Origin: Candidatus Coproplasma sp.
GTDB taxonomy: Bacteria > Bacillota > Clostridia > Christensenellales > Borkfalkiaceae
Length of the DNA: 64,000 nucleotides
NCBI GenBank assembly: GCA_051884135.1
Contig: JBJEVC010000003.1
Span: 272-64,271 of the forward strand
Reading direction: 5' to 3'
In this document: piece by piece, positions 1,718 through 14,424 of the stretch
Layout of the letters: every line of letters starts with the position of its first letter
Numbering within the stretch: position 1 is the first letter of the stretch
Position numbers and translations under genes: made by a program
Notes under the pieces: generated by a model
Seen by the model: the letters and a program-made list of their open reading frames with translations, nothing else
Database searches by the model: none
Told to the model about the DNA's origin: nothing

Positions 1718-2422
1718 ATGATTTTTGACGTAGCGGGACTTTTACTTTCCAAAATTTTCTTCTTTACGGGGTTAGTTAAACCCAAGGGCAGCTTCCCCAA
1801 ACCGTTGGATGTGGAAGAAGAGAAAAAGTATCTTGCGCTTGCCAGACAGGGGGATAAAGAGGCAAAGGATATTTTAGTAAAGCACAATATGCGTCTGGTT
1901 GCCCACATAGTAAAAAAATACTCGGGTGCGGCTGACAACGACGATTTGATGTCGGTGGGGACGATAGGGCTTATTAAGGCAATAAACACCTATAACGAAG
2001 GCAAGGGCACCCAGCTTGCCACCTATACCGCAAGGTGTATAGAAAACGAAATATTAATGCTAATACGCTCCGGAAAGAAGCACCGCAACACGGTGTCCAT
2101 GAACGATGCGGTCGGCACAGACAAGGACGGTAACGAGCTTACCGTTATGGATTTGCTCGCCGAAAAGGAAGAGAGCGTCTTTTCTCAAGTGGAAAAGAAT
2201 ATGCAGAGGGAGAAGTTTGTCTACCTACTTAAGGGCTTTTTAAACTACAGGGAGTACACCATAATAAACCTGCGCTACGGGTTGGAAGACGGCTGCCCTA
2301 TGCCGCAGAGAGAAGTGGCGAAAAAGTTGGGTATTTCCCGTTCCTACGTCTCCAGAATAGAAAAAAAGGCTATAGAAAAGGCAAGGCAAAACCTGAATAA
2401 GCAAGATTTTTTCACCGATTGA
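1718..2422 (+). CDS. sigK: sporulation sigma factor SigK (pro-sigma-K, uninterrupted)
   Basis: AAGGAG RBS. Hydrophobic pro-sequence, then FPKPLDVEEEKKYL...HNMRLVAHIVKKY, ATYTARCIENEILM and GISRSYVSRIEKKA. This closely parallels the B. subtilis SigK motifs. Confidence 0.85.
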   Translation: MIFDVAGLLLSKIFFFTGLVKPKGSFPKPLDVEEEKKYLALARQGDKEAKDILVKHNMRLVAHIVKKYSGAADNDDLMSVGTIGLIKAINTYNEGKGTQLATYTARCIENEILMLIRSGKKHRNTVSMNDAVGTDKDGNELTVMDLLAEKEESVFSQVEKNMQREKFVYLLKGFLNYREYTIINLRYGLEDGCPMPQREVAKKLGISRSYVSRIEKKAIEKARQNLNKQDFFTD

Positions 2423-2492: not shown

Positions 2493-3680
2493 ATGGGAAT
2501 TTACGAAGAGTTAAGAGAAAGAGGTTTAATAGCACAGGTCACTGACGAAGAAGAGATAAGAGAGCTTATAAATAGGGGCGGTGCAAGGTTCTACATCGGC
2601 TTTGACCCCACGGCAGACAGTCTGCACGTCGGTCACTTTATGGCGCTCTGCCTTATGAAGAGATTGCAGATGGCTGGCAACAAGCCCATCGTTTTAATCG
2701 GCGGCGGCACCGGTTACGTCGGCGACCCTTCGGGCAGAACCGATTTAAGGGCAATGCTCACCCCTGAAATTATCGAGCATAACTGCCAGTGCTTCAAAAA
2801 GCAGATGGAGAGATTCATCGAGTTCGGCGAAGACAAGGCAATTATGGTCAACAACGCCGAGTGGCTTTTAAAACTCAACTATATAGAGCTGTTAAGGGAA
2901 GTGGGCGCTTGCTTCTCCGTCAATAATATGCTCCGTGCCGAGTGCTATAAACAGCGTATGGAGAAGGGGCTTTCCTTCCTTGAGTTCAACTATATGATAA
3001 TGCAGTCCTACGACTTCTATCACTTAAACGAAGCATACGGCTGTAACATGCAGTTCGGTGGTGACGACCAGTGGTCCAATATGCTCGGCGGTACCGAGCT
3101 TATCAGGAAGAAGACGGGTAAGGACGCATACGCAATGACCATCACGCTGCTACTCAACAGCGAAGGCAAGAAGATGGGCAAGACGGCAAAGGGTGCAGTC
3201 TGGCTTGACGAAAACAAGACTACCCCCTACGAGTTCTACCAGTATTGGCGTAACGTCGACGATGCGGACGTTGATAAGTGCTTAAAGATGTTGACCTTCA
3301 TCTCGCTTGAAGAGATTGCCGAAATGTCGAAGTGGGAGGACAGCCGTATTAACGAGAAGAAGGAAATTCTCGCATACGAGCTCACCAAGATGGTTCACGG
3401 CGAAGATAAGGCAAATGCGGCAAAGGCGCAGGCGAAAGCGGCGTTCGGCGGCAGCGTTGACGACTTGCCCGAAACCGAAATCAAGGTAGAAACGGCTACT
3501 ATTATTCCCGTATTGGTTGCGGCAAAAATCTGCTCTTCCAACGGCGAAGCCCGCAGGCTCATTCAGCAGGGCGGCGTGTCCATCAACAGCGATAAAGTAA
3601 CCGATATCAACGCCCCCGTTCAAAGCGGCGACGTCATTCACAAGGGCAAGAAGATTCACGTTAAAGTTAAGCTTGTATAA
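2493..3680 (+). CDS. tyrS: tyrosine--tRNA ligase
   Basis: Class I HIGH motif (LHVGH), KMSKS-type KMGKT, FYIGFDPTADSLH, C-terminal S4-like domain. Confidence 0.95.
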   Translation: MGIYEELRERGLIAQVTDEEEIRELINRGGARFYIGFDPTADSLHVGHFMALCLMKRLQMAGNKPIVLIGGGTGYVGDPSGRTDLRAMLTPEIIEHNCQCFKKQMERFIEFGEDKAIMVNNAEWLLKLNYIELLREVGACFSVNNMLRAECYKQRMEKGLSFLEFNYMIMQSYDFYHLNEAYGCNMQFGGDDQWSNMLGGTELIRKKTGKDAYAMTITLLLNSEGKKMGKTAKGAVWLDENKTTPYEFYQYWRNVDDADVDKCLKMLTFISLEEIAEMSKWEDSRINEKKEILAYELTKMVHGEDKANAAKAQAKAAFGGSVDDLPETEIKVETATIIPVLVAAKICSSNGEARRLIQQGGVSINSDKVTDINAPVQSGDVIHKGKKIHVKVKLV

Positions 3681-4310
3681 ATGGATAAATATTTATCGTT
3701 AAGCGGCAGGTACGTAACCGAAAAGGTAATTGAAAAATCACGCTTTATCGCAACTTCTTGTCACGTTGAAAGCGAAGAAGAAGCAAAGGCGTTCATCGAA
3801 GAGATGCGCAAGACCTACCGTGACGCAACCCACAACTGCTATGCCTATATTTCAGACGAAAAGGGCAACTTTATGCGCTTTTCGGACGACGGCGAACCGC
3901 AGGGAACGGCAGGTATGCCGATGCTCGAAGTGCTTAAAGCCAATGCTTTAAAGCAGACGGCAGTGGTGGTCACAAGGTACTTTGGCGGAATTAAGCTCGG
4001 CGCAGGCGGATTAGTCAGGGCATATTCAGGTGCCGTCGCCGAAAACGTAGCGCAGGCTAAAATGGTGTGCTATCAACCCTGCACGCAGAGCGAGTATATT
4101 GCCGACTACCCTGCAACCGACACTCTTTTAAGGTATTTTTCGGAGAACGACTGCTCGGTTGTGGATACAATCTATGCCGACAAGGTGCGTTTCATCGTCT
4201 CTGTCAAAACCGAGAACGTTCAAAGTTTTAATTCAGCTTTAGTCAACAAATTAAACGGCAGAATAGAAATCAACCCTTTAGGTGAATTTATTTTTCCGTT
4301 TGATATATAA
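3681..4310 (+). CDS. YigZ/IMPACT family protein
   Basis: KSRFIA, HNCYAY and DDGEPQGTAGMPML motifs typical of the IMPACT N-terminal domain. The start codon abuts the tyrS stop. Confidence 0.85.
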   Translation: MDKYLSLSGRYVTEKVIEKSRFIATSCHVESEEEAKAFIEEMRKTYRDATHNCYAYISDEKGNFMRFSDDGEPQGTAGMPMLEVLKANALKQTAVVVTRYFGGIKLGAGGLVRAYSGAVAENVAQAKMVCYQPCTQSEYIADYPATDTLLRYFSENDCSVVDTIYADKVRFIVSVKTENVQSFNSALVNKLNGRIEINPLGEFIFPFDI

Positions 4311-4330
4311 TTGAGATAGTAACAATAATA

Positions 4331-4367: not shown

Positions 4368-4446
4368 AATCCCTGTAATTATTTAAAAAAATCATTGACT
4401 AACAATCAATGAAATGTTAAACTTTATGTATTAAAGGGGTACACAA

Positions 4447-6051
4447 ATGGAAGAAAAATTGCGCTATCGCAACTATATAAAGGAAAATCGCACAGCAATC
4501 ATCGGGTTTTCTGTGTTGTCGTGCGTCGTTTCGATTTTGGCGGTTGCCTTTGCGTATATGACGAAATTTTTAATAGACTCGGCAACTCAAGGCAAGCCGT
4601 TCGTCATTTTTGCCGTAGTTACCGGCGTTTTAATAATAGCGGAAGTAGGTTTTAAATATCTCTATTCCTACCTTGTAAACCGCAAGATCTACCAAACCGA
4701 AAACGCCATAAAAAAGCAGGCCTTCCTTTCCTATCTTAAAAAGGATTACAGGGATGCGGAGAGAATAGAAGACGCAGACGTGTTAATGCGTTTAACGTCC
4801 GACTGCAGGATAATAGCGGAAGGAGTGATAACCTACGTTCCCGAATTCGTTGGCATGCTTACGAGAATAGTGGCGTCGCTTGCGATTTTATTTATAGTAG
4901 ACTGGCTGTTTGCAAGCTGTCTTTTAGGGGTGGGCATAATCGTCTATTTTGCCACGAAGCTACTCCGCCGCAGAAACAAAACGCTCCACAAAAATGCCCA
5001 GCAAGCAGAAGGGGAAGTACTTTCGTTCTATAAGGAAGGCATTTCCCACTCGTTTTTATTCAAGCTCTTCGGCAACGGCAAGTACGTCAACGAGCGTTGC
5101 GATGAAATACAGACAAAGTATCACACCGCCCGTATGCGCTATGCAAGCTTCAATATTTTCGTAAACACGGGCTTTCTGTTCTTTATGAGGGCTTCGTATC
5201 TCATTGCAATAATCTGGGCGGTATTAGTCATCGTTCAAGGCGGCAGTTGGGGCAACCTGTTTTTAATGGTTCAGCTCATTGCCCAAATCGAAGGTCCATT
5301 CAGCTCCATATCTGGTTTAATTCCCCAATACTACCGCACGTTAGGCAGTATAGAGCGTATTTTTGCGTTAGAAGGCAAGGAAGAAGCAACTCCCATTTCG
5401 ATAACGGAATTTAACTCACCTATAATAGTTGATAATATTTCGTTTTCTTACGATGACGGTCAAACCCCTTTGCAGAACCTTTCGCTCACGATAAACCCCC
5501 ACGATTTTATTGCGATAGTCGGCGGAAGCGGTTGCGGCAAATCGACCCTTTTAAAATGCATAATGGGAATGTACAAGCCATCGCAAGGCAGTGTAACTTT
5601 CGAAGGCAAGGACGTCAGCCTATGCAGTACCCTGTTCTCATACGTCCCCCAGGGCAACTTTTTAATTCCGGGCACGATTAAAGAAAATCTCTGCCTTTTC
5701 TCCCCCGAAGCTACCGATGACGAGATAGAAAAGGTATTGTCTTTAACGATGTTAACCGAAAAGATATCTTCACTCCCTGCGGGGCTAAACAGCTCGGTTT
5801 CCGACTTTGGCGCAGGTCTTTCGGAGGGTGAAGGTCAAAGGCTTTCAATCGCCCGTGCCCTGCTTGTCGACCGCCCCGTTCTAGTGTTGGACGAATGTAC
5901 TTCTGCCCTTGACGAAGTGACCGAAAAGGCGATAATCGAGAATATAGTTTCACTCGGCAAGACGGTGCTTCTCGTTTCGCATAAGTCGGGTGCAATAAGG
6001 TATGCAAGCAAAGTTTTCCGTCTTAAGAAAGAGCAAACGGAGGAACTATGA
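4447..6051 (+). CDS. fused TMD-NBD ABC exporter (no C39 peptidase domain)
   Basis: AAGGGG RBS. N-terminal half has multiple hydrophobic helices. Walker A GGSGCGKST, signature LSEGEGQRLSIARA, Walker B VLVLDECTSALD, H-loop LVSHK. Confidence 0.9.
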   Translation: MEEKLRYRNYIKENRTAIIGFSVLSCVVSILAVAFAYMTKFLIDSATQGKPFVIFAVVTGVLIIAEVGFKYLYSYLVNRKIYQTENAIKKQAFLSYLKKDYRDAERIEDADVLMRLTSDCRIIAEGVITYVPEFVGMLTRIVASLAILFIVDWLFASCLLGVGIIVYFATKLLRRRNKTLHKNAQQAEGEVLSFYKEGISHSFLFKLFGNGKYVNERCDEIQTKYHTARMRYASFNIFVNTGFLFFMRASYLIAIIWAVLVIVQGGSWGNLFLMVQLIAQIEGPFSSISGLIPQYYRTLGSIERIFALEGKEEATPISITEFNSPIIVDNISFSYDDGQTPLQNLSLTINPHDFIAIVGGSGCGKSTLLKCIMGMYKPSQGSVTFEGKDVSLCSTLFSYVPQGNFLIPGTIKENLCLFSPEATDDEIEKVLSLTMLTEKISSLPAGLNSSVSDFGAGLSEGEGQRLSIARALLVDRPVLVLDECTSALDEVTEKAIIENIVSLGKTVLLVSHKSGAIRYASKVFRLKKEQTEEL

Positions 6052-7130
6052 ATTTATTAATAAAAATCATTCGCTCCGTGTTAAACGGCGAAAAGCTCTC
6101 GGTAAAGATAGATAAAGAGCTTCTTGAGATAGCGAAATATCACAGCGTATCGGTATATTTATACCCCTGTATGGATCAGACCGTAACCGAAAAAGAAGTT
6201 GCGGATGAAGTAACGCAAATATATTTCACGGCGTTAAAGCGAGATTTGATTCAGCAGACCGAAAGGGCGGCAATTGAGGCACAGTTTGAAAAAGAGCAAG
6301 TGCCTTTCCTTGCGTTAAAGGGAATGGTAATGAAGTCTTTTTATCCCCAAACGCACCTGCGTACAATGGGCGATATGGACTATCTGATTCCGCCTGAAAG
6401 CTTTTCAAAGGCGTGTAAAATTCTGCACGAACAGGGCTATAAGGCTGAAGAGAATTGTGAACATCATTTAGGCTTCACCAAACCGCCGATAATGCTTATA
6501 GAACTGCACAGGCTTTTAATCACGCAGGACGATATGGGCAGGGCGCTACTTGAAAACGTGTTGACCCGTTGTACTCCCAAGCAGGGGTCGTCTTTCGCCC
6601 TTGAGATGACTGACGAAGATTTTTATCTTCACTTAATGCTCCATTTAATTAAGCATTACGTCTACGGCGGTACGGGCTTGCGCTCGTTTATCGACGTATA
6701 TATCTATTTAAAGGCAAAACCCAACCTTGACAGAGATTATCTTTCTGCTGCGTTTGAGCAAACGGTTTACGCAGACGTCATAGCCCTTGTAGAGCGGTTT
6801 GCAATAGACTTGTTCGACGGCAATCCTTTGGATGAAGAAGAGAAAGAGATGTGTGAAAGGGTAATTATGTCAGGCACATACGGCGTAATATCAAACACGT
6901 CTGAAAAGGAGCTTGCCCAATCGGGAAACTCCACGTTTAAAATAGTAATGCGCAAGCTCTTCCCCACGGTCAGGACGATGAAGGGGTGGTACCCGATACT
7001 TGGCAAGGGTGCAGGCATAATGCTTTTGCCCGTCTTCTATATTTGGCACCCTGTTTCAAGGGTGTTCAGGGTTAACAGCTACCGCCGCACCAAAGAGCTT
7101 ATGAAAGCAAAAAAGAAGAACAAAAAATAA
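6048..7130 (+). CDS. nucleotidyltransferase family protein (uncharacterised NTP_transf_5-like type)
   Basis: ATGA overlap with the ABC gene. Pol-beta-like motif LKGMVMKSFYPQTHLRTMGDMDYLI (G...D-x-D). Lys-rich C-terminus. Confidence 0.75.
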   Translation: MNLLIKIIRSVLNGEKLSVKIDKELLEIAKYHSVSVYLYPCMDQTVTEKEVADEVTQIYFTALKRDLIQQTERAAIEAQFEKEQVPFLALKGMVMKSFYPQTHLRTMGDMDYLIPPESFSKACKILHEQGYKAEENCEHHLGFTKPPIMLIELHRLLITQDDMGRALLENVLTRCTPKQGSSFALEMTDEDFYLHLMLHLIKHYVYGGTGLRSFIDVYIYLKAKPNLDRDYLSAAFEQTVYADVIALVERFAIDLFDGNPLDEEEKEMCERVIMSGTYGVISNTSEKELAQSGNSTFKIVMRKLFPTVRTMKGWYPILGKGAGIMLLPVFYIWHPVSRVFRVNSYRRTKELMKAKKKNKK

Positions 7131-7167
7131 ATTCCCTGCCGTTGTTGCGTAGGGGAATAATTAATCA

Positions 7168-7206
7168 CCGCCGCAGGGGCGAAAGGTCGCCCCTGCGGCG
7201 GTTTCT
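7168..7206 (+). terminator. Rho-independent terminator
   Basis: 15-bp stem ccgccgcaggggcga / tcgcccctgcggcgg with a 4-nt loop, then tttct. Confidence 0.85.
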
Positions 7207-7284
7207 GGTTAAAATTAACCACCGTAAAGAATTGATATTAATGCCAAAATAATTAATATATTTACAAAAATTTTACAAAAATTG

Positions 7285-7313
7285 TTGACATTATTCATCA
7301 ATAGTGTTAATAT
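7285..7313 (+). promoter_or_regulatory. sigma-A-type promoter upstream of the small peptide gene
   Basis: TTGACA (7285-7290), 17-nt spacer, TAATAT (7308-7313) preceded by TGT (extended -10-like). A direct repeat tttacaaaaa x2 lies at 7261-7281 just upstream. Confidence 0.65.
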
Positions 7314-7358
7314 GTTACATAATAATAATTTATAGTATGGGAAAGTAATGGCATATGC

Positions 7359-7412
7359 CATTGCACGGTTGCTGGCGCAACCGTGCAATGCCTTCTATTT
7401 GTTTTTATTTTT
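7359..7412 (+). terminator. intrinsic-terminator-like hairpin in the 5' leader of the peptide gene (possible attenuator or end of a short RNA)
   Basis: 14-bp stem cattgcacggttgc / gcaaccgtgcaatg, loop tggc, then a T-rich tract ccttctatttgtttttattttt. Preceded by the perfect palindrome aatggcatatgccatt (7347-7362), which shares 4 nt with the stem. Confidence 0.6.
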
Positions 7413-7438
7413 CCCAAAAATATGATAAGGAGAATGTT

Positions 7439-7588
7439 ATGGAAAAGAAAAAACTCTTTGTTGAGCCCGAAGTGGAAGTCGTTCGTTTTGACGAAAAGGA
7501 CGTCATTACTTACAGTGGGGAACCTTTCACGTCATCAGCTTCCTACGCCATTGACAGCATAAAGGATTTCTTTAATATAGGTGTTTAA
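7439..7588 (+). CDS. 49-aa peptide, candidate RiPP precursor (MEKKKLFVEPEVEVVRFDEKDVITYSGEPFTSSASYAIDSIKDFFNIGV)
   Basis: AAGGAGA RBS 5 nt upstream of the ATG at 7439. N-terminus has an F-x-x-P-x-V pattern like the Y-x-x-P-x-L leader motif bound by PqqD-like RREs. Located between the two enzyme arms. Confidence 0.6.
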   Translation: MEKKKLFVEPEVEVVRFDEKDVITYSGEPFTSSASYAIDSIKDFFNIGV

Positions 7589-7606
7589 TTATTAAGGATA
7601 TTTGCA

Positions 7607-7972
7607 ATGAGAAAAGGTAACTTAAAACGACTGCTTGTAATTGCGCTTGCACTCGCCCCTATGGCTTTTGCGGCGGCATGCGGTCAGCCAAACAATTCCA
7701 CTGCAGACGGTAACCCTTCAGACATAGTGGATGTTCCTACCGAAGAACCTTCTCAAGAACCTTCCGAAGGTGATCCGACTGAAGAAGATCCGACCGAGGA
7801 AGATCCTTCTCAAGATCCTTCCGAAGGAGATCCTGCTGAAGAAGAACCTTCTCAAGATCCTTCCGAAGGAGATCCTGCTGAAGAAGATTCTTCCGGTGAT
7901 ACGTCTGAAGATAAACCTACAAAACCGTCCCTTCCCGGCGGCTTGGTAGACGGTGGAAATTACGAGTTTTAA
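7607..7972 (+). CDS. acidic Pro/Glu/Asp/Ser-repeat lipoprotein
   Basis: Signal peptide with lipobox (LALAPMAFAAAC), then about three 14-aa EEPSQ[DE]PSEGDP[AT]E repeats. Confidence 0.75.
   Translation: MRKGNLKRLLVIALALAPMAFAAACGQPNNSTADGNPSDIVDVPTEEPSQEPSEGDPTEEDPTEEDPSQDPSEGDPAEEEPSQDPSEGDPAEEDSSGDTSEDKPTKPSLPGGLVDGGNYEF
7742..7890 (+). repeat. tandem ~42-bp coding repeats (about 3 units)
   Basis: The ccttctcaagatccttccgaaggagatcctgctgaagaagaa unit recurs with few changes. It generates spurious ORFs in other frames. Confidence 0.85.
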
Positions 7973-8013
7973 CGGGGAGCTTAACAAACTATAAATATTT
8001 GAGGGAAAATTAT

Positions 8014-10224
8014 ATGAAAACAAAGACAAGGAAATTAATAGCCGCAGTTGCGGCAACCGCCTTGCTCGGCACTGCTGTCGGCGTAGGCGTTTATGCATTA
8101 AACAATTCTACTGAAAACGACTTCGGCTTTAAGGGCACATATTCCCTTAACGCTTTAGCGGATAACGCAGCCGCTTCAACTGTTACTGTTGCAGGTAAAT
8201 CCATTGATACAACTACAACTTTAACTCTTAAATCTTCGGATGCTGAACAGGCTTATACGCTTTTCGTTACAATTGTAGATACCGACGATATGACTGAACT
8301 TGCTGATATTAACGTTGGTTATACTGTTGGCGGAAATACTTATAATGCTCAGGCTTCGGGCTTATCCAACGTTGTTTACAGTTCTCTTACAGTTAATACG
8401 GGTAATGAAGAAGAGCCTACGGCAACAGTTACTGCAGCAGAGCTTGCAACAAGCTTTACTTCAACAATTACAAGCCCTAAACTTGTAATTGCAGAAGTTG
8501 AAGGTGATTTGAGTGCATCAACTTCTGAACTTACAATTACAGCTGCATTAAGCGCAAGCAATGTTAATGTTAAAGTAACTGGTCAGTGTGATGCTACAGC
8601 AGGCACGGATACCATAAAAGATGCTTTTGGTCAGGAATTAACTATAGCTAGCAGTAATGCAACTTTAGGTGCAGATCCTTTCTATGTAAATACAGCAAAG
8701 ACCGTTTATTTTGAAGGTGAAGGCAAAACCTTCCGTATTCCTGCTAGTGGATATCTTCAGACAACCGGTGCAGAAGCTCCTTTATATGTTGACTTAACCG
8801 ACTATGAAGAGGGTGTTGATATGTTGCTTACTATTAATGCAAGTTCAACCGGTAGTTCAAATGTAGGTCATTTGAATAGATATCTAATAATAAAGGGCAA
8901 TGGTCAGGATTTAGAATCCCAGTCATTAAACGTATCGGGTAGTGGAATAGATTGTAAGTTTATCGTTAAATCTGGTTATAAGTATCAAATTGACAATAGT
9001 AACGGTTTGAGAATATACAGCATTAGCTATGCTACAGCAACTGAAACTGATGCTGCTGACGTTTTAACCCAAGTAACCGTTACCGTAAAGGATAAGTTAG
9101 GTAATACTATTGCAACCATTACGGAAGATTCAACTCTTACCCGTCCTACGTTATACGTTGGTAGTGCATTGACTTCTGCTGGCGCAACTGCCACAATTAC
9201 TGCCGCATTGCCTGAAAACGCTACTTGGGACAAAAATATTTATACCGATGAAGCTTGTACAAAGCCATATAGTGAAATGACTCGTTTGACTGGCGACATA
9301 ACACTTTATGTTGACGTTGCTTATCCTACCGACGTTGTTGTAAATTACGGTGGTGGAGCAAAAACTATAACAAAGACTATTGGCTCCGAGCTTACGTTAG
9401 ACGAAATTGTAGCTGCCCTTGCAATTACTGTTGCAGATAATCAAAAGCTCGTATGCAAAGTTGAGAGCGCTGAAGTAACGTTGCCCATTACAGTTGTTGC
9501 AGGTTTAACTATAGATGCAGAATTAGTTACAGCTACAACAATCACTATAACCTATACTGATGCTGATGAAGTTGTTACAAACGTTGGCGAAGTAAAGATT
9601 ACTGCCCAAACTGACATGACCTATGCTGAATTAGCCGCTTGCGTTACGACTATTCCTTCAGGTATGGAGCTTTCAGCTATTACTGTAGATGGTAAAAAAT
9701 ATGAATCAGGTTATGCTGAATTAATAACAATTGATGCAGAATGTATCATAACCGCAACGTTTGTTGCTGCTTCGGCAAAGACTGATACGATAGATATAAG
9801 TACATTAGAAAGTTCTTATGCTGCAGATTCTACAGTATATGACGGTACACTCTTCACGATGTCAACCAAGATTAAACTAACGAAAAAGAGCGATTATATT
9901 GTTACCAATTCAGGTAAAACAGATAGTAGTAGTACTCCCATAGTCTTCACAGCTAAACAAAATATTACATTATCTTTAAAGGCTAATGTGGGTAATTCAG
10001 GTTTGACTGGCAGTTTTACTGATACTAACAATGTTATCTATCAAGTCTATAATAGTGATGGAACAGCGAGTGGAGATGCAGTGTCAACGGTTACAACAAA
10101 AACCTCAACATTTATTGATCTTAATATTACTTTGGAAGCAGGGCAGTATGTAAATCTGTATTTTACAACTAGTTCATCTTCTACTCGTTATTTAGGTTTC
10201 TCATCAATTTCTGCAACAACCTAA
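8014..10224 (+). CDS. large Thr/Ala/Ser/Val-rich secreted or membrane-anchored protein of unknown function
   Basis: GAGGGA RBS before the ATG at 8014 (the track start at 7999 is TTG). N-terminal signal/anchor KLIAAVAATALLGTAVGVGVYA. Two related beta-rich modules, ending ...LRIYSISYA and ...RYLGFSSISATT. No LPXTG motif. Confidence 0.8.
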   Translation: MKTKTRKLIAAVAATALLGTAVGVGVYALNNSTENDFGFKGTYSLNALADNAAASTVTVAGKSIDTTTTLTLKSSDAEQAYTLFVTIVDTDDMTELADINVGYTVGGNTYNAQASGLSNVVYSSLTVNTGNEEEPTATVTAAELATSFTSTITSPKLVIAEVEGDLSASTSELTITAALSASNVNVKVTGQCDATAGTDTIKDAFGQELTIASSNATLGADPFYVNTAKTVYFEGEGKTFRIPASGYLQTTGAEAPLYVDLTDYEEGVDMLLTINASSTGSSNVGHLNRYLIIKGNGQDLESQSLNVSGSGIDCKFIVKSGYKYQIDNSNGLRIYSISYATATETDAADVLTQVTVTVKDKLGNTIATITEDSTLTRPTLYVGSALTSAGATATITAALPENATWDKNIYTDEACTKPYSEMTRLTGDITLYVDVAYPTDVVVNYGGGAKTITKTIGSELTLDEIVAALAITVADNQKLVCKVESAEVTLPITVVAGLTIDAELVTATTITITYTDADEVVTNVGEVKITAQTDMTYAELAACVTTIPSGMELSAITVDGKKYESGYAELITIDAECIITATFVAASAKTDTIDISTLESSYAADSTVYDGTLFTMSTKIKLTKKSDYIVTNSGKTDSSSTPIVFTAKQNITLSLKANVGNSGLTGSFTDTNNVIYQVYNSDGTASGDAVSTVTTKTSTFIDLNITLEAGQYVNLYFTTSSSSTRYLGFSSISATT

Positions 10225-10253
10225 TTTAATAATTTTATTAGATTGAGCTATGA

Positions 10254-10287
10254 AACGGCGGTGCTTCGGCACCGCCGTCTTATTTTG
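10254..10287 (+). terminator. Rho-independent terminator
   Basis: Stem aacggcggtgc / gcaccgccgt(c)t around loop ttcg, then tattttg. Confidence 0.85.
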
Positions 10288-10310
10288 CCCCAACACAACC
10301 CGTCATTGCG

Positions 10311-10527
10311 CCCGTCCCCCCCAACCGTCATTGCGAAGCGGCTTATAGCCGCTGCGGCAATCCCAGACTCCCAACCACCTAACCAATTCTTAAATATTCT
10401 CACCACATTTATTATTTATTCATTTTTCTTTATTCTTTATTCTTTTAGCATATTGCTCCGCCCAAAACCCCGACGAGATTGCCACGCACTCCTTGCAGTC
10501 GTGTCTCGCAATGACGGTGGGGGGGGG
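10311..10527. repeat. MITE/REP-like element with imperfect ~50-bp inverted termini and an AT-rich core
   Basis: Left end is cccccccaaccgtcattgcgaagcggc..gcggcaatccc. The right end, reverse-complemented, reads cccccccaccgtcattgcgagac..gtggcaatctc. Core atttattatttattcatttttctttattctttattctttta (10407-10447). Confidence 0.7.
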
Positions 10528-10557
10528 TAGATAAAGAAATCGGTTTGAAAAATTTTT

Positions 10558-11016
10558 TCAAACCGATTTCTTCTTAAATATTCTTTTAACCTTATTTATA
10601 ACCTTCTTGAACGGAATTCGTATAAACGCCGTCAGCTTCCAAAAAAGGGAGTAGGACTTATAGCCGAAACTATTTTTAACTTCAATCTCCTTTCCGTTGC
10701 GCCAGATTCGCTCTAAAACGCCCAAAATCTTGTCCTTTGGTACATACTCTTTAGCAACGCAATTATCGCCCCTGATGACGTAAATATCGCCTTTAATCTT
10801 AAGCACTCGGTGCAGAACGCACACTCTGCCGTCTGCGCCTTCATACAGTGCAACGTCGCCCTTTTTCGGCAAGCCTTTAACAATCATCACGGTGTCCTTG
10901 CCCTGCCGAAGCAGTGGGAGCATGCTCACGCCCGTAACTTTGGTTATGTGGTAGCCGTATTTCTCCAGATCTTCTCTCGGGGATAAGGCTATAATTTCGT
11001 CCATATCACTCATCAA
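10558..11016 (-). CDS. S24/S26 family Ser-Lys peptidase (signal-peptidase/LexA-like fold)
   Basis: VTGVSMLPLL nucleophile motif and a downstream LHRVLKIKGD Lys motif. 11-nt overlap with the upstream PqqD-like gene. Confidence 0.75.
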   Translation of the reverse strand: MMSDMDEIIALSPREDLEKYGYHITKVTGVSMLPLLRQGKDTVMIVKGLPKKGDVALYEGADGRVCVLHRVLKIKGDIYVIRGDNCVAKEYVPKDKILGVLERIWRNGKEIEVKNSFGYKSYSLFWKLTAFIRIPFKKVINKVKRIFKKKSV

Positions 11017-11263
11017 TAAAGCCGTTCTTCTTTAAAAGTTCCACCGTATTTTTTACAGCTTGCGTTGCCTGCTCATTTGTAGCTTCATATTCGCTCAAAA
11101 CTGCCGCAACGAGCTCTTCTTCGGTTGCGCCGTTTTCAAGTTTCTTCCAAAGATAAGCGGCAATTTCGTTCATTTTAATTACGCCTGAAAAGTCGCTCCC
11201 TACAGGAATAGCAACAACCTGACCGTCAAGTTCTTTTAAGATAAAACCCTTTTTAATTTTCAT
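11006..11263 (-). CDS. PqqD family protein (RiPP recognition element-like)
   Basis: 85 aa from the ATG at 11263, with a GAAGGGGG RBS. Small winged-helix-like protein: ...LNEIAAYLWKKLENGATEEELVAAVLSEYEA...AVKNTVELLKKNGFI. 4-nt ATGA overlap with the kinase-like gene. Confidence 0.75.
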   Translation of the reverse strand: MKIKKGFILKELDGQVVAIPVGSDFSGVIKMNEIAAYLWKKLENGATEEELVAAVLSEYEATNEQATQAVKNTVELLKKNGFIDE

Positions 11264-11958
11264 AATTTTAACCCCCTTCTCGCCACGATAGCCGCTTCGT
11301 CGCTGATAGTACAGCTCATCTCGTAGCACTTAACCTTTTTTGAAAGTTCATTCAATAACTCTGTTAGCCTTAATCTATGCTCGGTTTCTTTAGGGAAGGA
11401 AACCTGTAAAAAGGTTTTCATAAACGCTTCATCAGCCGAAATTTGCCTGATTTCGTTTTTCTCTCCCCGTTTTAAAAAAACTATTGCCTTTAGCGGTGCT
11501 TTGCCGTTATAGCCTGCGTTTTCCTTGCCCTGCCAGGGCGAACCGTATGCGGTAAATTCCTGCCCGTCATAGTGCAAAATCGGCTTATCACCGTTTAAAA
11601 CCTTGCAGTCTTTAAAATTTTTAAGCCAAAGCGCAATGTGTGTGCTCTTGCCGACGCCGCTCTTTGCCGCAAACGCAACCGCCTTGCCGCCCACTTCCAA
11701 AGTGGCAGAGTGGAACAAAAAACGGTCGAAGTCTATCATCTTTTCCGCAACGTTCCTGCATACGCAGGCATTTTCGCAGTACTGCTCAACCCTTAATTCG
11801 GAAAGTTCCATCTCTTTGGCAATTTCTTCATCGGTGCATTTTGCCGTAAATGCCGCCTTACCTTCCGAAAGATACCCTTCAACGAACCTGTCGTTTATCT
11901 CATAGCGGAAGTCAAGGTCAATTAATAAATCTGCAATTTTTACAGTAACCATATTCAA
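11260..11958 (-). CDS. HPr kinase C-terminal-domain-like P-loop protein
   Basis: FHSATLEVGGKAVAFAAKSGVGKSTHIALWL...LNGDKPIL matches the hHAs..v.G.avl..G.SG.GKST ... DD pattern of HprK-related kinases. Confidence 0.7.
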   Translation of the reverse strand: MNMVTVKIADLLIDLDFRYEINDRFVEGYLSEGKAAFTAKCTDEEIAKEMELSELRVEQYCENACVCRNVAEKMIDFDRFLFHSATLEVGGKAVAFAAKSGVGKSTHIALWLKNFKDCKVLNGDKPILHYDGQEFTAYGSPWQGKENAGYNGKAPLKAIVFLKRGEKNEIRQISADEAFMKTFLQVSFPKETEHRLRLTELLNELSKKVKCYEMSCTISDEAAIVARRGLKL

Positions 11959-12087
11959 CTTTTATTATATAACATTACCCCTTAAAAGTCAATTCCCTAC
12001 TCTGTCCGCCGCAACAATTTTGCCACTTAATTAACAAAACCCGTCAATAACAAATAAGACCCTGACGATAAGTCAAAGTCTTATTTG

Positions 12088-12172
12088 TGGTGGGAGGAGG
12101 TGGATTCGAACCACCGAAGTCGGAGACGTCAGATTTACAGTCTGATGCATTTGGCCACTCTGCAATCCGCCC
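12088..12172 (-). tRNA. tRNA-Tyr (GTA)
   Basis: Cloverleaf read by eye: anticodon loop ctGTAaa, long variable arm, T-arm ggtgg-ttcgaat-ccacc, encoded CCA. One C4:U69 acceptor mismatch. Confidence 0.8.
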
Positions 12173-12209
12173 AAAATATTAAGTTTACCGATAAACGGGG
12201 GTAGGTGTG

Positions 12210-12285
12210 TGGAGCTGGTGACTGGACTTGAACCCGCGACCGGCTGATTACAAATCAGCTGCTCTACCAACTGAGCTACACCAGC
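12210..12285 (-). tRNA. tRNA-Thr (TGT)
   Basis: Acceptor gctggtg/caccagc, D-arm tagctcagttggtagagc, anticodon loop ttTGTaa, encoded CCA. Confidence 0.85.
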
Positions 12286-12307
12286 AAAACCGCTTAATAA
12301 TTTTAAG

Positions 12308-12383
12308 TGGTGCCTTGGGGTGGAATCGAACCGCCGACATAAGGATTTTCAGTCCTCCGCTCTACCAACTGAGCTACCAAGGC
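12308..12383 (-). tRNA. tRNA-Phe (GAA)
   Basis: Acceptor gccttgg/ccaaggc, anticodon loop ctGAAaa, T-loop ttcgatt, encoded CCA. Confidence 0.85.
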
Positions 12384-12418
12384 GTATTTAAGCACCTTTT
12401 AAAGGTGCTTAAGAAGTT

Positions 12419-12495
12419 TGGCGACCCGAAACGGGCTCGAACCGTCGACCTCCAGCGTGACAGGCTGGCGCTCTAACCAACTGAGCTATCGGGCC
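12419..12495 (-). tRNA. tRNA-Asp (GTC)
   Basis: Acceptor ggcccga/tcgggtc, anticodon loop ctGTCac, T-arm gacgg-ttcgagc-ccgtt, encoded CCA. Confidence 0.9.
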
Positions 12496-12539
12496 AAATA
12501 TTTTAAAACGTTGTCGTTATAAAAACTATTAAATTTAAT

Positions 12540-12558
12540 TGGTGGGCCTTCACGGACT
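12540..12558 (-). repeat. 19-nt duplicate of the 3' end of the adjacent tRNA(CAT) gene (T-loop end, T-stem, acceptor, CCA)
   Basis: tggtgggccttcacggact is identical to 12658-12676. The upstream sequence does not form a tRNA. Confidence 0.85.
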
Positions 12559-12657
12559 ACTTCGCACTTTCGTGCTCGTGCCACTGCAAGCAGTGGGGCG
12601 AACCTGCGCTTCGAGTCAATCTATGTGCCGACAAAAGCTAAACACAAATAATTTAAG

Positions 12658-12734
12658 TGGTGGGCCTTCACGGACTCGAACCGCGGACCAATCGGTTATG
12701 AGCCGACCGCTCTAACCAACTGAGCTAAAGGCCC
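12658..12734 (-). tRNA. tRNA with CAT anticodon (elongator Met or Ile2; not initiator-like)
   Basis: Acceptor gggcctt/aaggccc with G1-C72, anticodon loop ctCATaa, no GGG/CCC anticodon stem, encoded CCA. Confidence 0.85.
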
Positions 12735-12954
12735 TCATCAACGCAAAGTGATTTCCACACAACGCTTGTATATAATAATATAACCAGCATTTTTTGTCAA
12801 GTGTTTTTTAAACGTATTTATTTAATTTTTAAAAAATTTTTGTCTTGTTAAAAATAGACCTTTTCGACCAAAAAAGAGTTAAAAACCCATATTTAACTAA
12901 AATATTCGTTTCTTGCAAATGTATTATAAAGAAAAACTTCAGGGGCGTAGGTCA

Positions 12955-13266
12955 ATGAAAATAATTGAAGGTATCGCAGGCGGAGCGCTTTATATAAAGC
13001 TCGTCGGTGAGATGGACGAATACTCTGCCCAAGCCGTACGCATACGGTGCGACAAACTAATCGAGAGCAATGCAACCGTTAAAAAGATAGTAATCAATCT
13101 TTCGGAAGTTGAGTTTATGGATTCTACGGGAATAGGCTTTCTTATTGGCAGGTATAAAAAGGCTTCAAGGCTTAATATTCCCTTATACGTTGAATCACCC
13201 AACGTTGCTGCGGACAAAATTTTAAATTTAAGCGGTATATATTCGCTTATACCGAAGGCGGAATAA
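12955..13266 (+). CDS. spoIIAA: anti-sigma F factor antagonist SpoIIAA (STAS domain)
   Basis: ATG at 12955 after AGGGG. The EFMDSTGIGFLIGRY phospho-Ser motif region. Followed by spoIIAB and sigF. Confidence 0.9.
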   Translation: MKIIEGIAGGALYIKLVGEMDEYSAQAVRIRCDKLIESNATVKKIVINLSEVEFMDSTGIGFLIGRYKKASRLNIPLYVESPNVAADKILNLSGIYSLIPKAE

Positions 13267-13268
13267 AG

Positions 13269-13706
13269 ATGACGAAGAACTATTTAAAGCTACAATTTTA
13301 TTCTCTTCCGCAAAATCAAGCGTTTGCAAGGGATGCTGTCGCTGCGTTTTGCCTTGAATTAAACCCCACCATCTCCGACTTGTCCGACGTAAAAACCGCC
13401 GTATCCGAAGCTGTGACAAACTGCACCGTGCATGCGTACAGGGGCAATTTAGGCATAATTACCATTGAATGCGAAGTTCAAGAGGAATGTGTACATATAA
13501 AGATAAGCGATACGGGTAAGGGCATACCGGACGTTGAAAAAGCCGTTCAGCCCTTCTATACCACGCTACCTGAAGATGAACGTTCCGGCATGGGCTTTAC
13601 TATTATGCAGACGTTTATGGACGAGTTCAGAGTCAGTTCGGTTCAGGGCGAAGGTACCGTAGTCTATATGGTTAAATGCTTTAAACCGGAAGTAGAGAAT
13701 GCTTGA
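13269..13706 (+). CDS. spoIIAB: anti-sigma F factor SpoIIAB (Ser kinase)
   Basis: HATPase motifs EAVTNCTVHAY, DTGKGIPD, ERSGMGFTIM. Operon position supports the call. Confidence 0.9.
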   Translation: MTKNYLKLQFYSLPQNQAFARDAVAAFCLELNPTISDLSDVKTAVSEAVTNCTVHAYRGNLGIITIECEVQEECVHIKISDTGKGIPDVEKAVQPFYTTLPEDERSGMGFTIMQTFMDEFRVSSVQGEGTVVYMVKCFKPEVENA

Positions 13707-14424
13707 CCAAACAACTTGTAATAAACTGATACGCAAGGCAAAGGCAGGGGACAACGACGCAAAGGAACGCCTGCTCTGTGAAAACACAAATCTTATCAAA
13801 TCAATCGTTAAGCGTTACCTTAATAAGGGGGTAGAGTACGACGATTTGTTTCAGCTTGCTTCAATGGGGCTTTTAAAGGCGATAGCAGGCTTTGACGAGA
13901 GTTATAACGTCAGGTTCTCGACCTATGCCGTACCTATGATTTCGGGTGAGATTAAACGCTTTATGCGTGACGACGGGAGCATCAAGGTATCCCGTGCGAT
14001 AAAGGCGCAGGCGAAGCAGATTAATGAGTTCGTTGAGCAATATACGGCAGCTAACGGCGTTCAGCCGTCTATAAAAGCGATATCCGAAAAATTCGGTATG
14101 CCGCAGAGCGAAGTGGTATTCACTATGGGTTCGTCAAGAATGCCAGTATCGATTTATGCGCAGGGAGATTATAAGGACGAGAAGTCCAAACTACTGCTGG
14201 ACAAGCTCCCCGTAGACGACAAGCAGGAAGAGCTTTTAGACGTGTTAGAGCTCCGTTCGGCAATAGCAGACTTGCCCGACAGGGACAAAAAGGTCATAAT
14301 GCTGCGCTACTTCAGGGATATGACGCAGGCGGAAGTGGCAGAAAGTCTTGGCGTTTCGCAGGTTCAGGTGTCACGCATCGAGAGCAGGATAATGCAGACG
14401 TTCCGCAACAAATTGACGGGTTAA
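13699..14424 (+). CDS. sigF: sporulation sigma factor SigF
   Basis: FSTYAVPMISGEIKRFMRDDGSIKVSR and TQAEVAESLGVSQVQVSRIESRI. Overlaps the spoIIAB stop. Confidence 0.9.
   Translation: MLDQTTCNKLIRKAKAGDNDAKERLLCENTNLIKSIVKRYLNKGVEYDDLFQLASMGLLKAIAGFDESYNVRFSTYAVPMISGEIKRFMRDDGSIKVSRAIKAQAKQINEFVEQYTAANGVQPSIKAISEKFGMPQSEVVFTMGSSRMPVSIYAQGDYKDEKSKLLLDKLPVDDKQEELLDVLELRSAIADLPDRDKKVIMLRYFRDMTQAEVAESLGVSQVQVSRIESRIMQTFRNKLTG

Follow-up and report, generated by a model that had tools for sequence, protein, structure and literature searches.

A divergent, probably LPP-type, peptide gene cluster in gut and rumen Clostridia

A 64-kb stretch of DNA (the window, meaning the whole stretch that was analyzed), probably from “Candidatus Coproplasma” (Clostridia), carries between positions 4447 and 11958 genes for a 49-amino-acid (aa) peptide, an HprK-fold kinase, a discrete ribosomally synthesized and posttranslationally modified peptide (RiPP) recognition element (RRE), a leader peptidase, an ATP-binding cassette (ABC) exporter, and a nucleotidyltransferase (NTP transferase)-like protein. 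Judged by gene content, gene order, and conserved residues, this region is probably a divergent Clostridial version of the biosynthetic gene clusters for linear polyphosphorylated peptides (LPPs). The class itself has been known since May 2026; what is new here is a Clostridial branch with distinct leader, peptidase, and RRE lineages. The source assignment fits the annotation of an identical 49-aa peptide, and of the closest named kinase homologues, in “Ca. Coproplasma” metagenome-assembled genomes (MAGs). The original prediction for this DNA described a self-contained, cyclase-free system for phosphorylation, decoration, leader removal, and export of a peptide with an F/YxxP leader. That outline still appears sound, but its companion statement, which placed the system outside every known RiPP class, is outdated because the gene set has since been described as LPP (PMC13381572).

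The LPP family was defined by Popov et al. (Nat Commun 2026;17:6633, 20 May 2026; PMC13381572), whose search started from SipW-like peptidases encoded beside RREs in Bacilli. The set comprises a SipW-like peptidase, an RRE encoded as a discrete protein, a kinase resembling HprK, an NTP transferase that is uncharacterized, and a transporter resembling MsbA, and the precursors, of up to 200 aa, carry the leader YxxPxVLxHQxIxFETxxS (PMC13381572). The cluster lppA-K-B-S-D-N of Paenibacillus alginolyticus DSM5050 was expressed in B. subtilis; LppK places up to four phosphates on core Ser3, and LppS (Ser29, His68, and Asp93) cuts the leader after Thr-1 only with LppB present (PMC13381572). Crystal structures show the leader YxxP docked in the RRE (9X8Z and 9X90), with LppB Asp70 hydrogen bonded to the leader Tyr (9X8Z) (PMC13381572). 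The data set was drawn from NCBI in February 2019, the distribution in Bacilli is patchy, and Clostridia are not mentioned in the main text (PMC13381572).

The window genes lie in two arms. On the plus strand, an LppD-like ABC exporter (534 aa; 4447 to 6051) shares a 4-bp ATGA overlap with, and is translationally coupled to, an LppN-like NTP_transf_5 protein (360 aa; 6048 to 7130; motif MGDMDYLI). On the minus strand, an LppK-like HprK-fold kinase (232 aa; 11260 to 11958, with relatives beginning at the ATG at 11952), an LppB-like RRE of the PqqD fold (85 aa; 11006 to 11263), and an LppS-like soluble leader peptidase (152 aa; 10558 to 11016) are joined by stop/start overlaps. The LppA-like 49-aa precursor gene (7439 to 7588, plus strand) lies between them. 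The gene set, coordinates, ATGA overlap, and motifs of the original prediction were all recovered in the open reading frame (ORF) list and Pfam scan, which likewise contained no radical SAM gene in the cluster, as had been stated. A 49-aa peptide gene with its own promoter was also correctly placed between the arms, but two further genes there had been overlooked, those for a probable lipoprotein (121 aa; 7607 to 7972, plus strand) and a secreted protein (741 aa; 7999 to 10224, plus strand). Compared with a close, 82%-identical relative (locus L001), the kinase, RRE, peptidase, exporter, transferase, and precursor genes are under purifying selection, with dN/dS values of 0.04 to 0.16 (0.16 for the precursor) that are rough because dS is near saturation.

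Precursor peptide and its family

The precursor reads MEKKKLFVEPEVEVVRFDEKDVITYS-GEPFTSSASYAIDSIKDFFNIGV, with the leader motif F7-x-x-P10-x-V12 and a family-invariant Ser at position 26 (codon 7514 to 7516), and it is the sole match to the leader profile across the whole window. Thirteen sequences from relatives keep its leader. A word-indexed protein search with the 49-aa peptide returned close Coproplasma relatives only, and recovery of the leader family outside Coproplasma needed a profile run on fetched loci and a DNA pattern scan. With the profile built on the window peptide, small ORFs like it turned up in ten loci; those of L054, L063, and L065 immediately precede the kinase gene, an arrangement also seen in lppA-K. 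The DNA scan used a degenerate pattern covering part of the leader against metagenome contigs; 111 of the 120 stretches listed encode a leader-family small ORF, with 107 distinct sequences. Leader positions left unconstrained by the pattern were nonetheless conserved: Tyr in 99/104, Phe in 98/104, and Thr-Thr-Ser with its Ser in 104/104.

The Clostridial branch has its own, very strongly conserved 23-residue leader. The first half is YxxPE[MIV]E[IV] in the relatives and FxxPxV in the window, and the second half is FxxEDVIT[TA]S. Cores following the invariant Ser have a median length of 14 aa and are acidic, with many Gly, Asp, Pro, and Glu residues; 25 of 107 contain no Ser, Thr, or Tyr besides the invariant Ser. 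This residue lies 19 residues past the leader aromatic, and the phospho-acceptor Ser3 of LppA lies 18 residues past its counterpart. The near-LppA spacing makes Ser26 the predicted phospho-acceptor of the window peptide, with the leader probably cut just before it.

Some metagenome loci carry more than one precursor gene. In L122 (1366 to 2153, minus strand), five tandem genes with near-identical leaders and differing cores immediately precede a kinase gene, and three such tandem genes are present in L138 (39 to 362, plus strand). A single 114-aa ORF of L191 (1481 to 1825, minus strand) combines a lipoprotein signal, a low-complexity linker, a full leader, and a core; it is either a true fusion of a tethered protein with a precursor or an artifact of assembly or ORF calling.

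Recognition element and covariation with the leader

The 85-aa protein matches Pfam PqqD (E = 2.4e-15), which bears out its predicted PqqD assignment, and its gene overlaps the peptidase gene. It resembles the lasso B1 structures TbiB1 and PbaB1, as well as LppB, only weakly, and within the data set of PMC13381572 it is closest to Clostridial RREs of the “RRE others” group (cluster 4; E = 2.5e-15). RREs of 35 precursor-bearing loci were aligned to LppB. The position equivalent to LppB Asp70 is Asp in all 28 loci with YxxP leaders and Ala (five loci) or Ser (one locus) in all six with FxxP leaders, the window and L001 among them. The six Phe-leader loci have clearly different RRE sequence backgrounds. 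L122, scored with both Tyr and Phe leaders, has Asp at this position, and the equivalent of LppB Asn33 is Asn in 35/35. This covariation agrees with the binding mode published for LPP and speaks for the 49-aa peptide as the client of the window RRE.

The RRE is not a constant companion of the kinase. In L007, L013, L015, L030, L031, L062, L064, L071, and L081 the kinase gene is followed directly by the peptidase gene, with no RRE detectable within 10 kb, and in L040, L050, L051, L057, L067, and L070 the kinase is accompanied by neither RRE nor peptidase.

Kinase, exporter, and transferase

The kinase contains the Walker A motif SGVGKST (SGVGKSTH), NGDKP (NGDKPIL), and GSPWQGKE. Its close homologues are labeled PF27840 ScmC, a newer Pfam family to which LppK is likewise assigned. 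Locus L087 of Paenibacillus frigoriresistens, whose LppS is 97% identical to the characterized protein, served as a stand-in for the characterized LPP proteins; against it, the window kinase scores E = 1.7e-8 to LppK, at 26% identity, and E = 1.5e-4 to the lasso kinase. The AlphaFold model (predicted local distance difference test score [pLDDT], 95) has Lactobacillus casei HprK/P as its top PDB match (E = 4.8e-7), with phosphoenolpyruvate carboxykinase next. NCBIfam matches to HprK-related kinases are weak and below cutoff. The HprK-like assignment of the original prediction is upheld by the ScmC label of the homologues and by the HprK/P match of the model.

Within the kinase family, proteins P0208 and P0292 are single-chain fusions of kinase and NTP_transf_5 domains, which ties the window's two arms together, and P0230 is a fusion of kinase and peptidase. 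Two further fusions, of the kinase with a Tyr-phosphatase-family domain (P0293) and with a radical SAM domain (P0286), suggest that additional variants of kinase-centered peptide systems exist.

The exporter has fused transmembrane and ATPase domains (ABC_membrane, E = 7e-24; ABC_tran, E = 7e-29) and, in the Pfam scan, no peptidase (C39) domain. Its top NCBIfam matches are CydC/MsbA-type exporters, all below cutoffs, and its ATPase half shares 34% identity with Paenibacillus LppD (E = 1.7e-42). The transferase belongs to Pfam PF14907 NTP_transf_5 (E = 1.1e-42) and is 27% identical to PbaN of the lasso cluster (E = 4e-10) and 21% identical to LppN (E = 2e-4). Literature searches on ScmC/SynChlorMet and on NTP_transf_5/PF14907 turned up nothing useful, and the local Pfam scan gave no match for the kinase, the peptidase, the 49-aa peptide, the 121-aa lipoprotein, or the 741-aa protein.

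Leader peptidase

The peptidase, with the motifs GVSMLP and HRVLKIKG, had been described as an S24 Ser-Lys enzyme. That assignment does not hold, since all 55 homologues retain Ser31, His69, Asp84, and Glu90 and no lysine is conserved (K73 in 25/55 and K75 in 15/55). Ser31, His69, and Glu90 align with Ser29, His68, and Asp93 of LppS, which are essential there by mutagenesis, and are the predicted catalytic residues. By its sequence features, the window peptidase is an S26B-like Ser/His enzyme. Its best family match is the NCBIfam model sigpep_I_arch (archaeal-type signal peptidase I; E = 6.8e-7, below cutoff), and its structural model (pLDDT, 81) resembles LexA and signal-peptidase folds of clan SF, a fold that by itself cannot separate S24 from S26.

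No transmembrane segment was detected in the peptidase (maximum hydropathy, 0.78), and the region of the SipW membrane anchor is missing from the alignment. Lacking this anchor, the enzyme is expected to work in the cytoplasm, with an RRE-bound leader, and not a Sec signal peptide, as its predicted substrate.

Proposed pathway

In the proposed pathway, the 49-aa precursor would be expressed from its own promoter, and the 85-aa RRE would take up F7-x-x-P10-x-V12 of the leader as an added strand of its β-sheet. The kinase would place one or more phosphates on a Ser at the leader-core junction, predicted to be Ser26, the sole family-invariant residue there. The SipW-like peptidase, using Ser31, His69, and Glu90, would cut the RRE-bound precursor one to three residues before Ser26. 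The NTP_transf_5 enzyme may put a sugar or nucleotide on the phosphate, and the ABC exporter would secrete the product, which in the absence of a cyclase must be linear. Polyphosphorylation of core Ser3 and cleavage that depends on the RRE have been demonstrated by experiment in Paenibacillus only (PMC13381572); for the window, which Ser is the acceptor, where the leader is cut, what the transferase might do, and what the product is for are put forward by extrapolation from related systems.

Conservation of the gene set and alternative explanations

Two sets of loci were used to ask how the genes are distributed. An alignment-based scan of species-representative genomes with the kinase gave at least 575 confirmed loci, and all among the matches listed are Clostridia MAGs. 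Counts refer to 82 nonredundant genome loci that were fetched. The peptidase is encoded in 66 of these, the RRE in 65, an ABC protein in 31, and the transferase in 10; the genes keep fixed positions downstream of the kinase, usually in the order K-B-S(-D)(-N). The leader-centered metagenome set gives the same association from the opposite direction: 29 of 56 leader-pattern contigs of 6 to 20 kb bear kinase, RRE, peptidase, or transferase genes. A nearby precursor is enriched where the transferase is present (6/10 versus 3/72 genome loci; Fisher p = 4e-5). The grouping of these genes is far beyond chance, and their predicted co-occurrence in other genomes is confirmed from both the kinase and the leader. 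Unbiased clustering of neighboring ORFs revealed no other recurrent family beyond taxon synteny. A kinase profile search of 1.84 billion representative proteins (E <= 1e-30) returned 1,952 clusters at 50% identity.

Several observations weigh against placing the window within the LPP type. Its RRE falls outside the LPP RRE clade by similarity ranking rather than by a tree, with E values of 0.5 to 4 against four LPP RREs and of about 1 against LppB among PDB chains. The peptidase matches LppS at only E = 1.2e-3 by phmmer, compared with 1e-11 for cluster 4/9 sequences, gave no BLASTP match to LppS at E < 10, and lies outside cluster 1 of the sequence similarity network (SSN) of PMC13381572 (edges at E <= 1e-23 to LppS relatives). 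The kinase, transferase, and exporter are only 21 to 34% identical to their LPP counterparts. The leader half FxxEDVITTS differs from the HQxIxFETxxS of LPP, so that the cleavage and phosphorylation sites are extrapolated. LppN itself had no detectable effect, and the final product and function of LPP are unknown (PMC13381572). Among the sequences of that data set, the window peptidase and RRE are nearest to cluster 4/9 entries from Dehalobacter, Ruminococcus, and Anaerocolumna, whose RREs are classed as “others.” The window is therefore best regarded as a relative with the same architecture rather than as a member of the characterized LPP subgroup.

The remaining difficulty concerns substrates. 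A recognizable precursor lies within 10 kb in only about 10/82 kinase-centered loci, no convincing aromatic-x-x-P small ORF was found just upstream of the kinase in the precursor-less loci, and the RRE or the peptidase is missing in about 15/82, so that the core genes may have other substrates or roles. The kinase-RRE-peptidase trio might serve mainly to mature some other, larger or distant substrate or in its regulated proteolysis, with the small peptides as one client or a nonphysiological one, and phosphorylation might be a license for cleavage rather than a feature of a natural product. The frequent location of the trio among housekeeping genes and its very wide distribution, compared with patchy LPP in Bacilli, are consistent with this, as is the length that LPP precursors can attain. 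However, the precursors that were found are short, with a highly conserved leader and a hypervariable core, as in RiPP precursors; a dedicated exporter is frequent; and no alternative substrate family recurs beside the trio. Taken jointly, these two proposals are considered improbable.

Could the two arms be unrelated neighbors, with the 49-aa ORF simply part of a lipoprotein/secreted-protein operon? The arms are separated by 3.4 kb with two unrelated-looking genes, and in many relatives, such as L003 and L005, K-B-S stands alone among housekeeping genes. This explanation is nevertheless very improbable, as about 26 of the 82 loci have an ABC gene immediately after the kinase-RRE-peptidase genes and 10 have the transferase gene beside the peptidase gene, single contigs found by the leader pattern alone hold all six parts (L092, L111, L132, L134, L144, L155, and L160), and it leaves the kinase-transferase fusions, the precursors directly upstream of kinase genes, and the covariation of RRE and leader unaccounted for.

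Least tenable, and scarcely credible, is a decayed paeninodin-like lasso cluster that has lost its cyclase and B2 protease and whose tailoring genes no longer function: paeninodin- and pseudomycoidin-type clusters have this leader motif, an RRE, and the kinase and transferase as well, and the window transferase is slightly nearer to PbaN than to LppN, but tblastn probes with PbaC and PbaB2 from L087 found no match at E <= 0.01 in the window, 86 genome loci, or 120 metagenome loci, a separate leader peptidase is conserved down to its catalytic residues, all of the genes are under purifying selection, there are at least 575 related loci and 1,952 kinase clusters, and the inspected cores have no acidic residue at positions 7 to 9, which in the window are Ser-Ala-Ser when numbered from Gly27. 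The same searches agree with the earlier statement that no lasso cyclase/B2 pair lies nearby and found none in relatives, and no cyclase or B2 family is among the recurrent neighbors.

Secreted and membrane-tethered neighbors

Two sorts of gene recur beside the precursor genes of the metagenome loci. In 66 of 111 metagenome loci, a gene for a large secreted protein lies immediately upstream of the precursor on the same strand (for example, L088 2638 to 5853 and L113 158 to 3523; the metagenome set is L088 to L207). An unannotated ~300-aa C-terminal domain, unmatched in Pfam, NCBIfam, and the PDB sequences, is common to 43 of the 71 upstream ORFs that are 300 aa or longer. It is also present in L054 (3035 to 5359), L009 (301 to 3078), and L074 (6788 to 8347), three genome loci in which the gene ends ~20 bp before the precursor start. 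The N-terminal parts of the upstream proteins vary and include GLUG, F5/8 type C, Big_2, and β-helix domains.

Of 66 distinct precursor/next-ORF pairs, 23 have a membrane-tethered low-complexity protein as the second member (e.g., L088 6092 to 6907, L134 3712 to 4317, L174 2793 to 3236, and L175 4613 to 5206). These proteins have a lipobox or a transmembrane anchor and abound in Ser, Thr, Asp, Glu, and Lys. Their C termini often resemble the core of the neighboring precursor (...NEPIELPLVPLR versus ...DQPIELPLVPLR; 14/500 in a permutation test). C-terminal motifs of this kind include ELPFVPxx and DGLDWSPLVPVN, and also ELPFVP and DGLDWSPLVPV; in some cases an N-proximal motif resembles cores of the same locus as well.

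The window has a precursor-lipoprotein-secreted protein trio that is alike in kind, although not homologous, to these metagenome neighbors. Its 741-aa protein has no Pfam or NCBIfam match and lacks the ~300-aa C-terminal domain; the L001 counterpart bears CBM77. The 121-aa lipoprotein, with a signal/lipobox-like N terminus, is conserved in L001. Its gene contains in-frame tandem repeats at 7755 to 7895 (periods of 15, 27, and 42 nt) that encode an acidic stalk rich in Pro, Ser, Glu, and Asp, and the L001 homologue has a different repeat, EENPS, in about 11 copies. Likeness between the C termini of the window peptide core and the window lipoprotein was considered and set aside, the similarity being too weak to claim. 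Both proteins are possibly accessories of the system.

A broader suggestion is that LPP-like machinery in gut and rumen Clostridia is, rather than a sporadic pathway of the antibiotic type, a very widespread means of maturing short acidic peptides for a cell-surface module. It is prompted by the tight coupling of precursor genes to secreted-protein genes, by tethered proteins that copy core C termini, and by the same-kind trio of the window, and at present it is rather unlikely. If true, a phospho-(glyco)peptide and a tethered mimic could be alternative ligands of the secreted protein, and surface proteins would then be anchored or released by a new, peptide-based mechanism. The genomic link to surface proteins hints at where the function could be sought.

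Regulatory signals and genomic context

Promoter-like sites were located by a consensus scan and scored as matches out of 12. The exporter-transferase operon is preceded by a site at 4395 to 4423 (plus strand; 9 to 10 of 12), with an alternative at 4300 to 4329, and is closed by a strong hairpin terminator with a 16-bp stem (7167 to 7202). The precursor has its own near-consensus site, TTGACA-17-TAATAT, TG extended, at 7285 to 7313 (plus strand). Between the 49-aa peptide gene and a terminator at 10255 to 10278 (plus strand) there is no other terminator, and the lipoprotein and 741-aa protein genes appear to be cotranscribed with the precursor. The kinase-RRE-peptidase operon has a site, TTGACT-17-TATAAT, at 11964 to 11992 (minus strand; 11 of 12).

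The precursor promoter block and ribosome-binding site are kept in L001, whereas the surrounding intergenic DNA has diverged. A perfect hairpin with a 14-bp stem in the 5′ untranslated region of the precursor (7359 to 7390) sits inside a ~49-bp insertion that is absent from the otherwise conserved promoter-to-ribosome-binding-site stretch of L001. The hairpin has no Rfam family match and may act as an attenuator or represent a small inserted palindrome. The transferase-precursor intergenic region of L001 (14286 to 15127) is ~840 bp long, versus ~310 bp in the window, and contains several copies of a ~45-bp element (TAGGGAAAGTGTC...GACGATAGAGTTTGAA).

Rfam matches in the window are limited to five tRNA genes (Tyr, Thr, Phe, Asp, and Met) at 12088 to 12734 (minus strand), directly upstream of the kinase operon promoter. 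Read by eye from translations alone, a spoIIAA-spoIIAB-sigF-like operon lies at 12913 to 14424 (plus strand), a sporulation-type sigma factor gene at 1718 to 2422 (plus strand), and a tyrosyl-tRNA synthetase gene at 2493 to 3680. These sporulation- and tRNA synthetase-like flanks place the cluster in a housekeeping region and not on an obvious mobile element.

Comparison with known systems

SynChlorMet (ScmC/ScmD; TIGR04249/04248) and HPr-rel-A (TIGR04352/04353) systems also pair an HprK-fold P-loop protein with a PqqD protein. The window proteins score far under the corresponding cutoffs (ScmC, 21 versus 125; ScmD, 28.7 versus 100; HprK_rel_A, 23.5 versus 200), and the radical SAM/SPASM partners of SynChlorMet are absent from the window cluster and from its recurrent neighbors. 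SipW of B. subtilis (MEROPS S26B) shares with the window peptidase the SM-P, HR, and GDN motifs, the Ser/His pair, and the LexA/signal-peptidase fold, but only SipW has an N-terminal membrane anchor.

The window also resembles the Bacillota clusters for the lasso peptides paeninodin and pseudomycoidin. These clusters have a [Y/W]xxP leader, a discrete PqqD-like B1 protein, an HprK-like kinase that acts on Ser, possibly adding several phosphates, and an ABC exporter. A review confirms the background on which the original prediction drew, namely, phosphorylated paeninodin and further-decorated pseudomycoidin (PMC8498205); in the latter, the phosphate carries one or two hexoses, the work of an NTP_transf_5-type enzyme (PMC8498205, PMC13381572). 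Unlike the window, however, these clusters encode an Asn-synthetase-like cyclase and a transglutaminase-like B2 protease; their kinase is of the Hpr_kinase_C family and acts on a C-terminal Ser, whereas the window kinase belongs to ScmC; and the leader peptidase of the window is a serine enzyme. The two kinase types occur side by side in L087, where an A-K-B-S-D-N cluster with a ScmC-type LppK is followed by a lasso cluster with an Hpr_kinase_C kinase.

LPP of Paenibacillus is the nearest known system. The window parts correspond one-to-one to lppA-K-B-S-D-N, neither has a cyclase, and the two share the kinase-RRE-peptidase and exporter-transferase orders, the aromatic-x-x-P-x-V element in the first half of the leader, and a conserved Ser at nearly equal spacing. 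They differ in host (Bacilli versus Clostridia), in the second half of the leader, in the peptidase and RRE lineages, in the split of the window genes into two convergent arms, in the third catalytic residue of the peptidase (Asp in LppS and Glu in the window), and in neighborhood, with capsule genes beside LPP and a lipoprotein and a large secreted protein in the window. The Clostridial branch is abundant in uncultured gut and rumen bacteria, with at least 575 loci, ~1,950 kinase clusters, and at least 107 distinct precursors, and it offers a much larger and more varied set of natural precursor-enzyme pairs. Relative to LPP, the leader Tyr is replaced by Phe in the window and the Tyr-binding Asp of the RRE by Ala, a natural paired switch that provides a test of the published recognition model.

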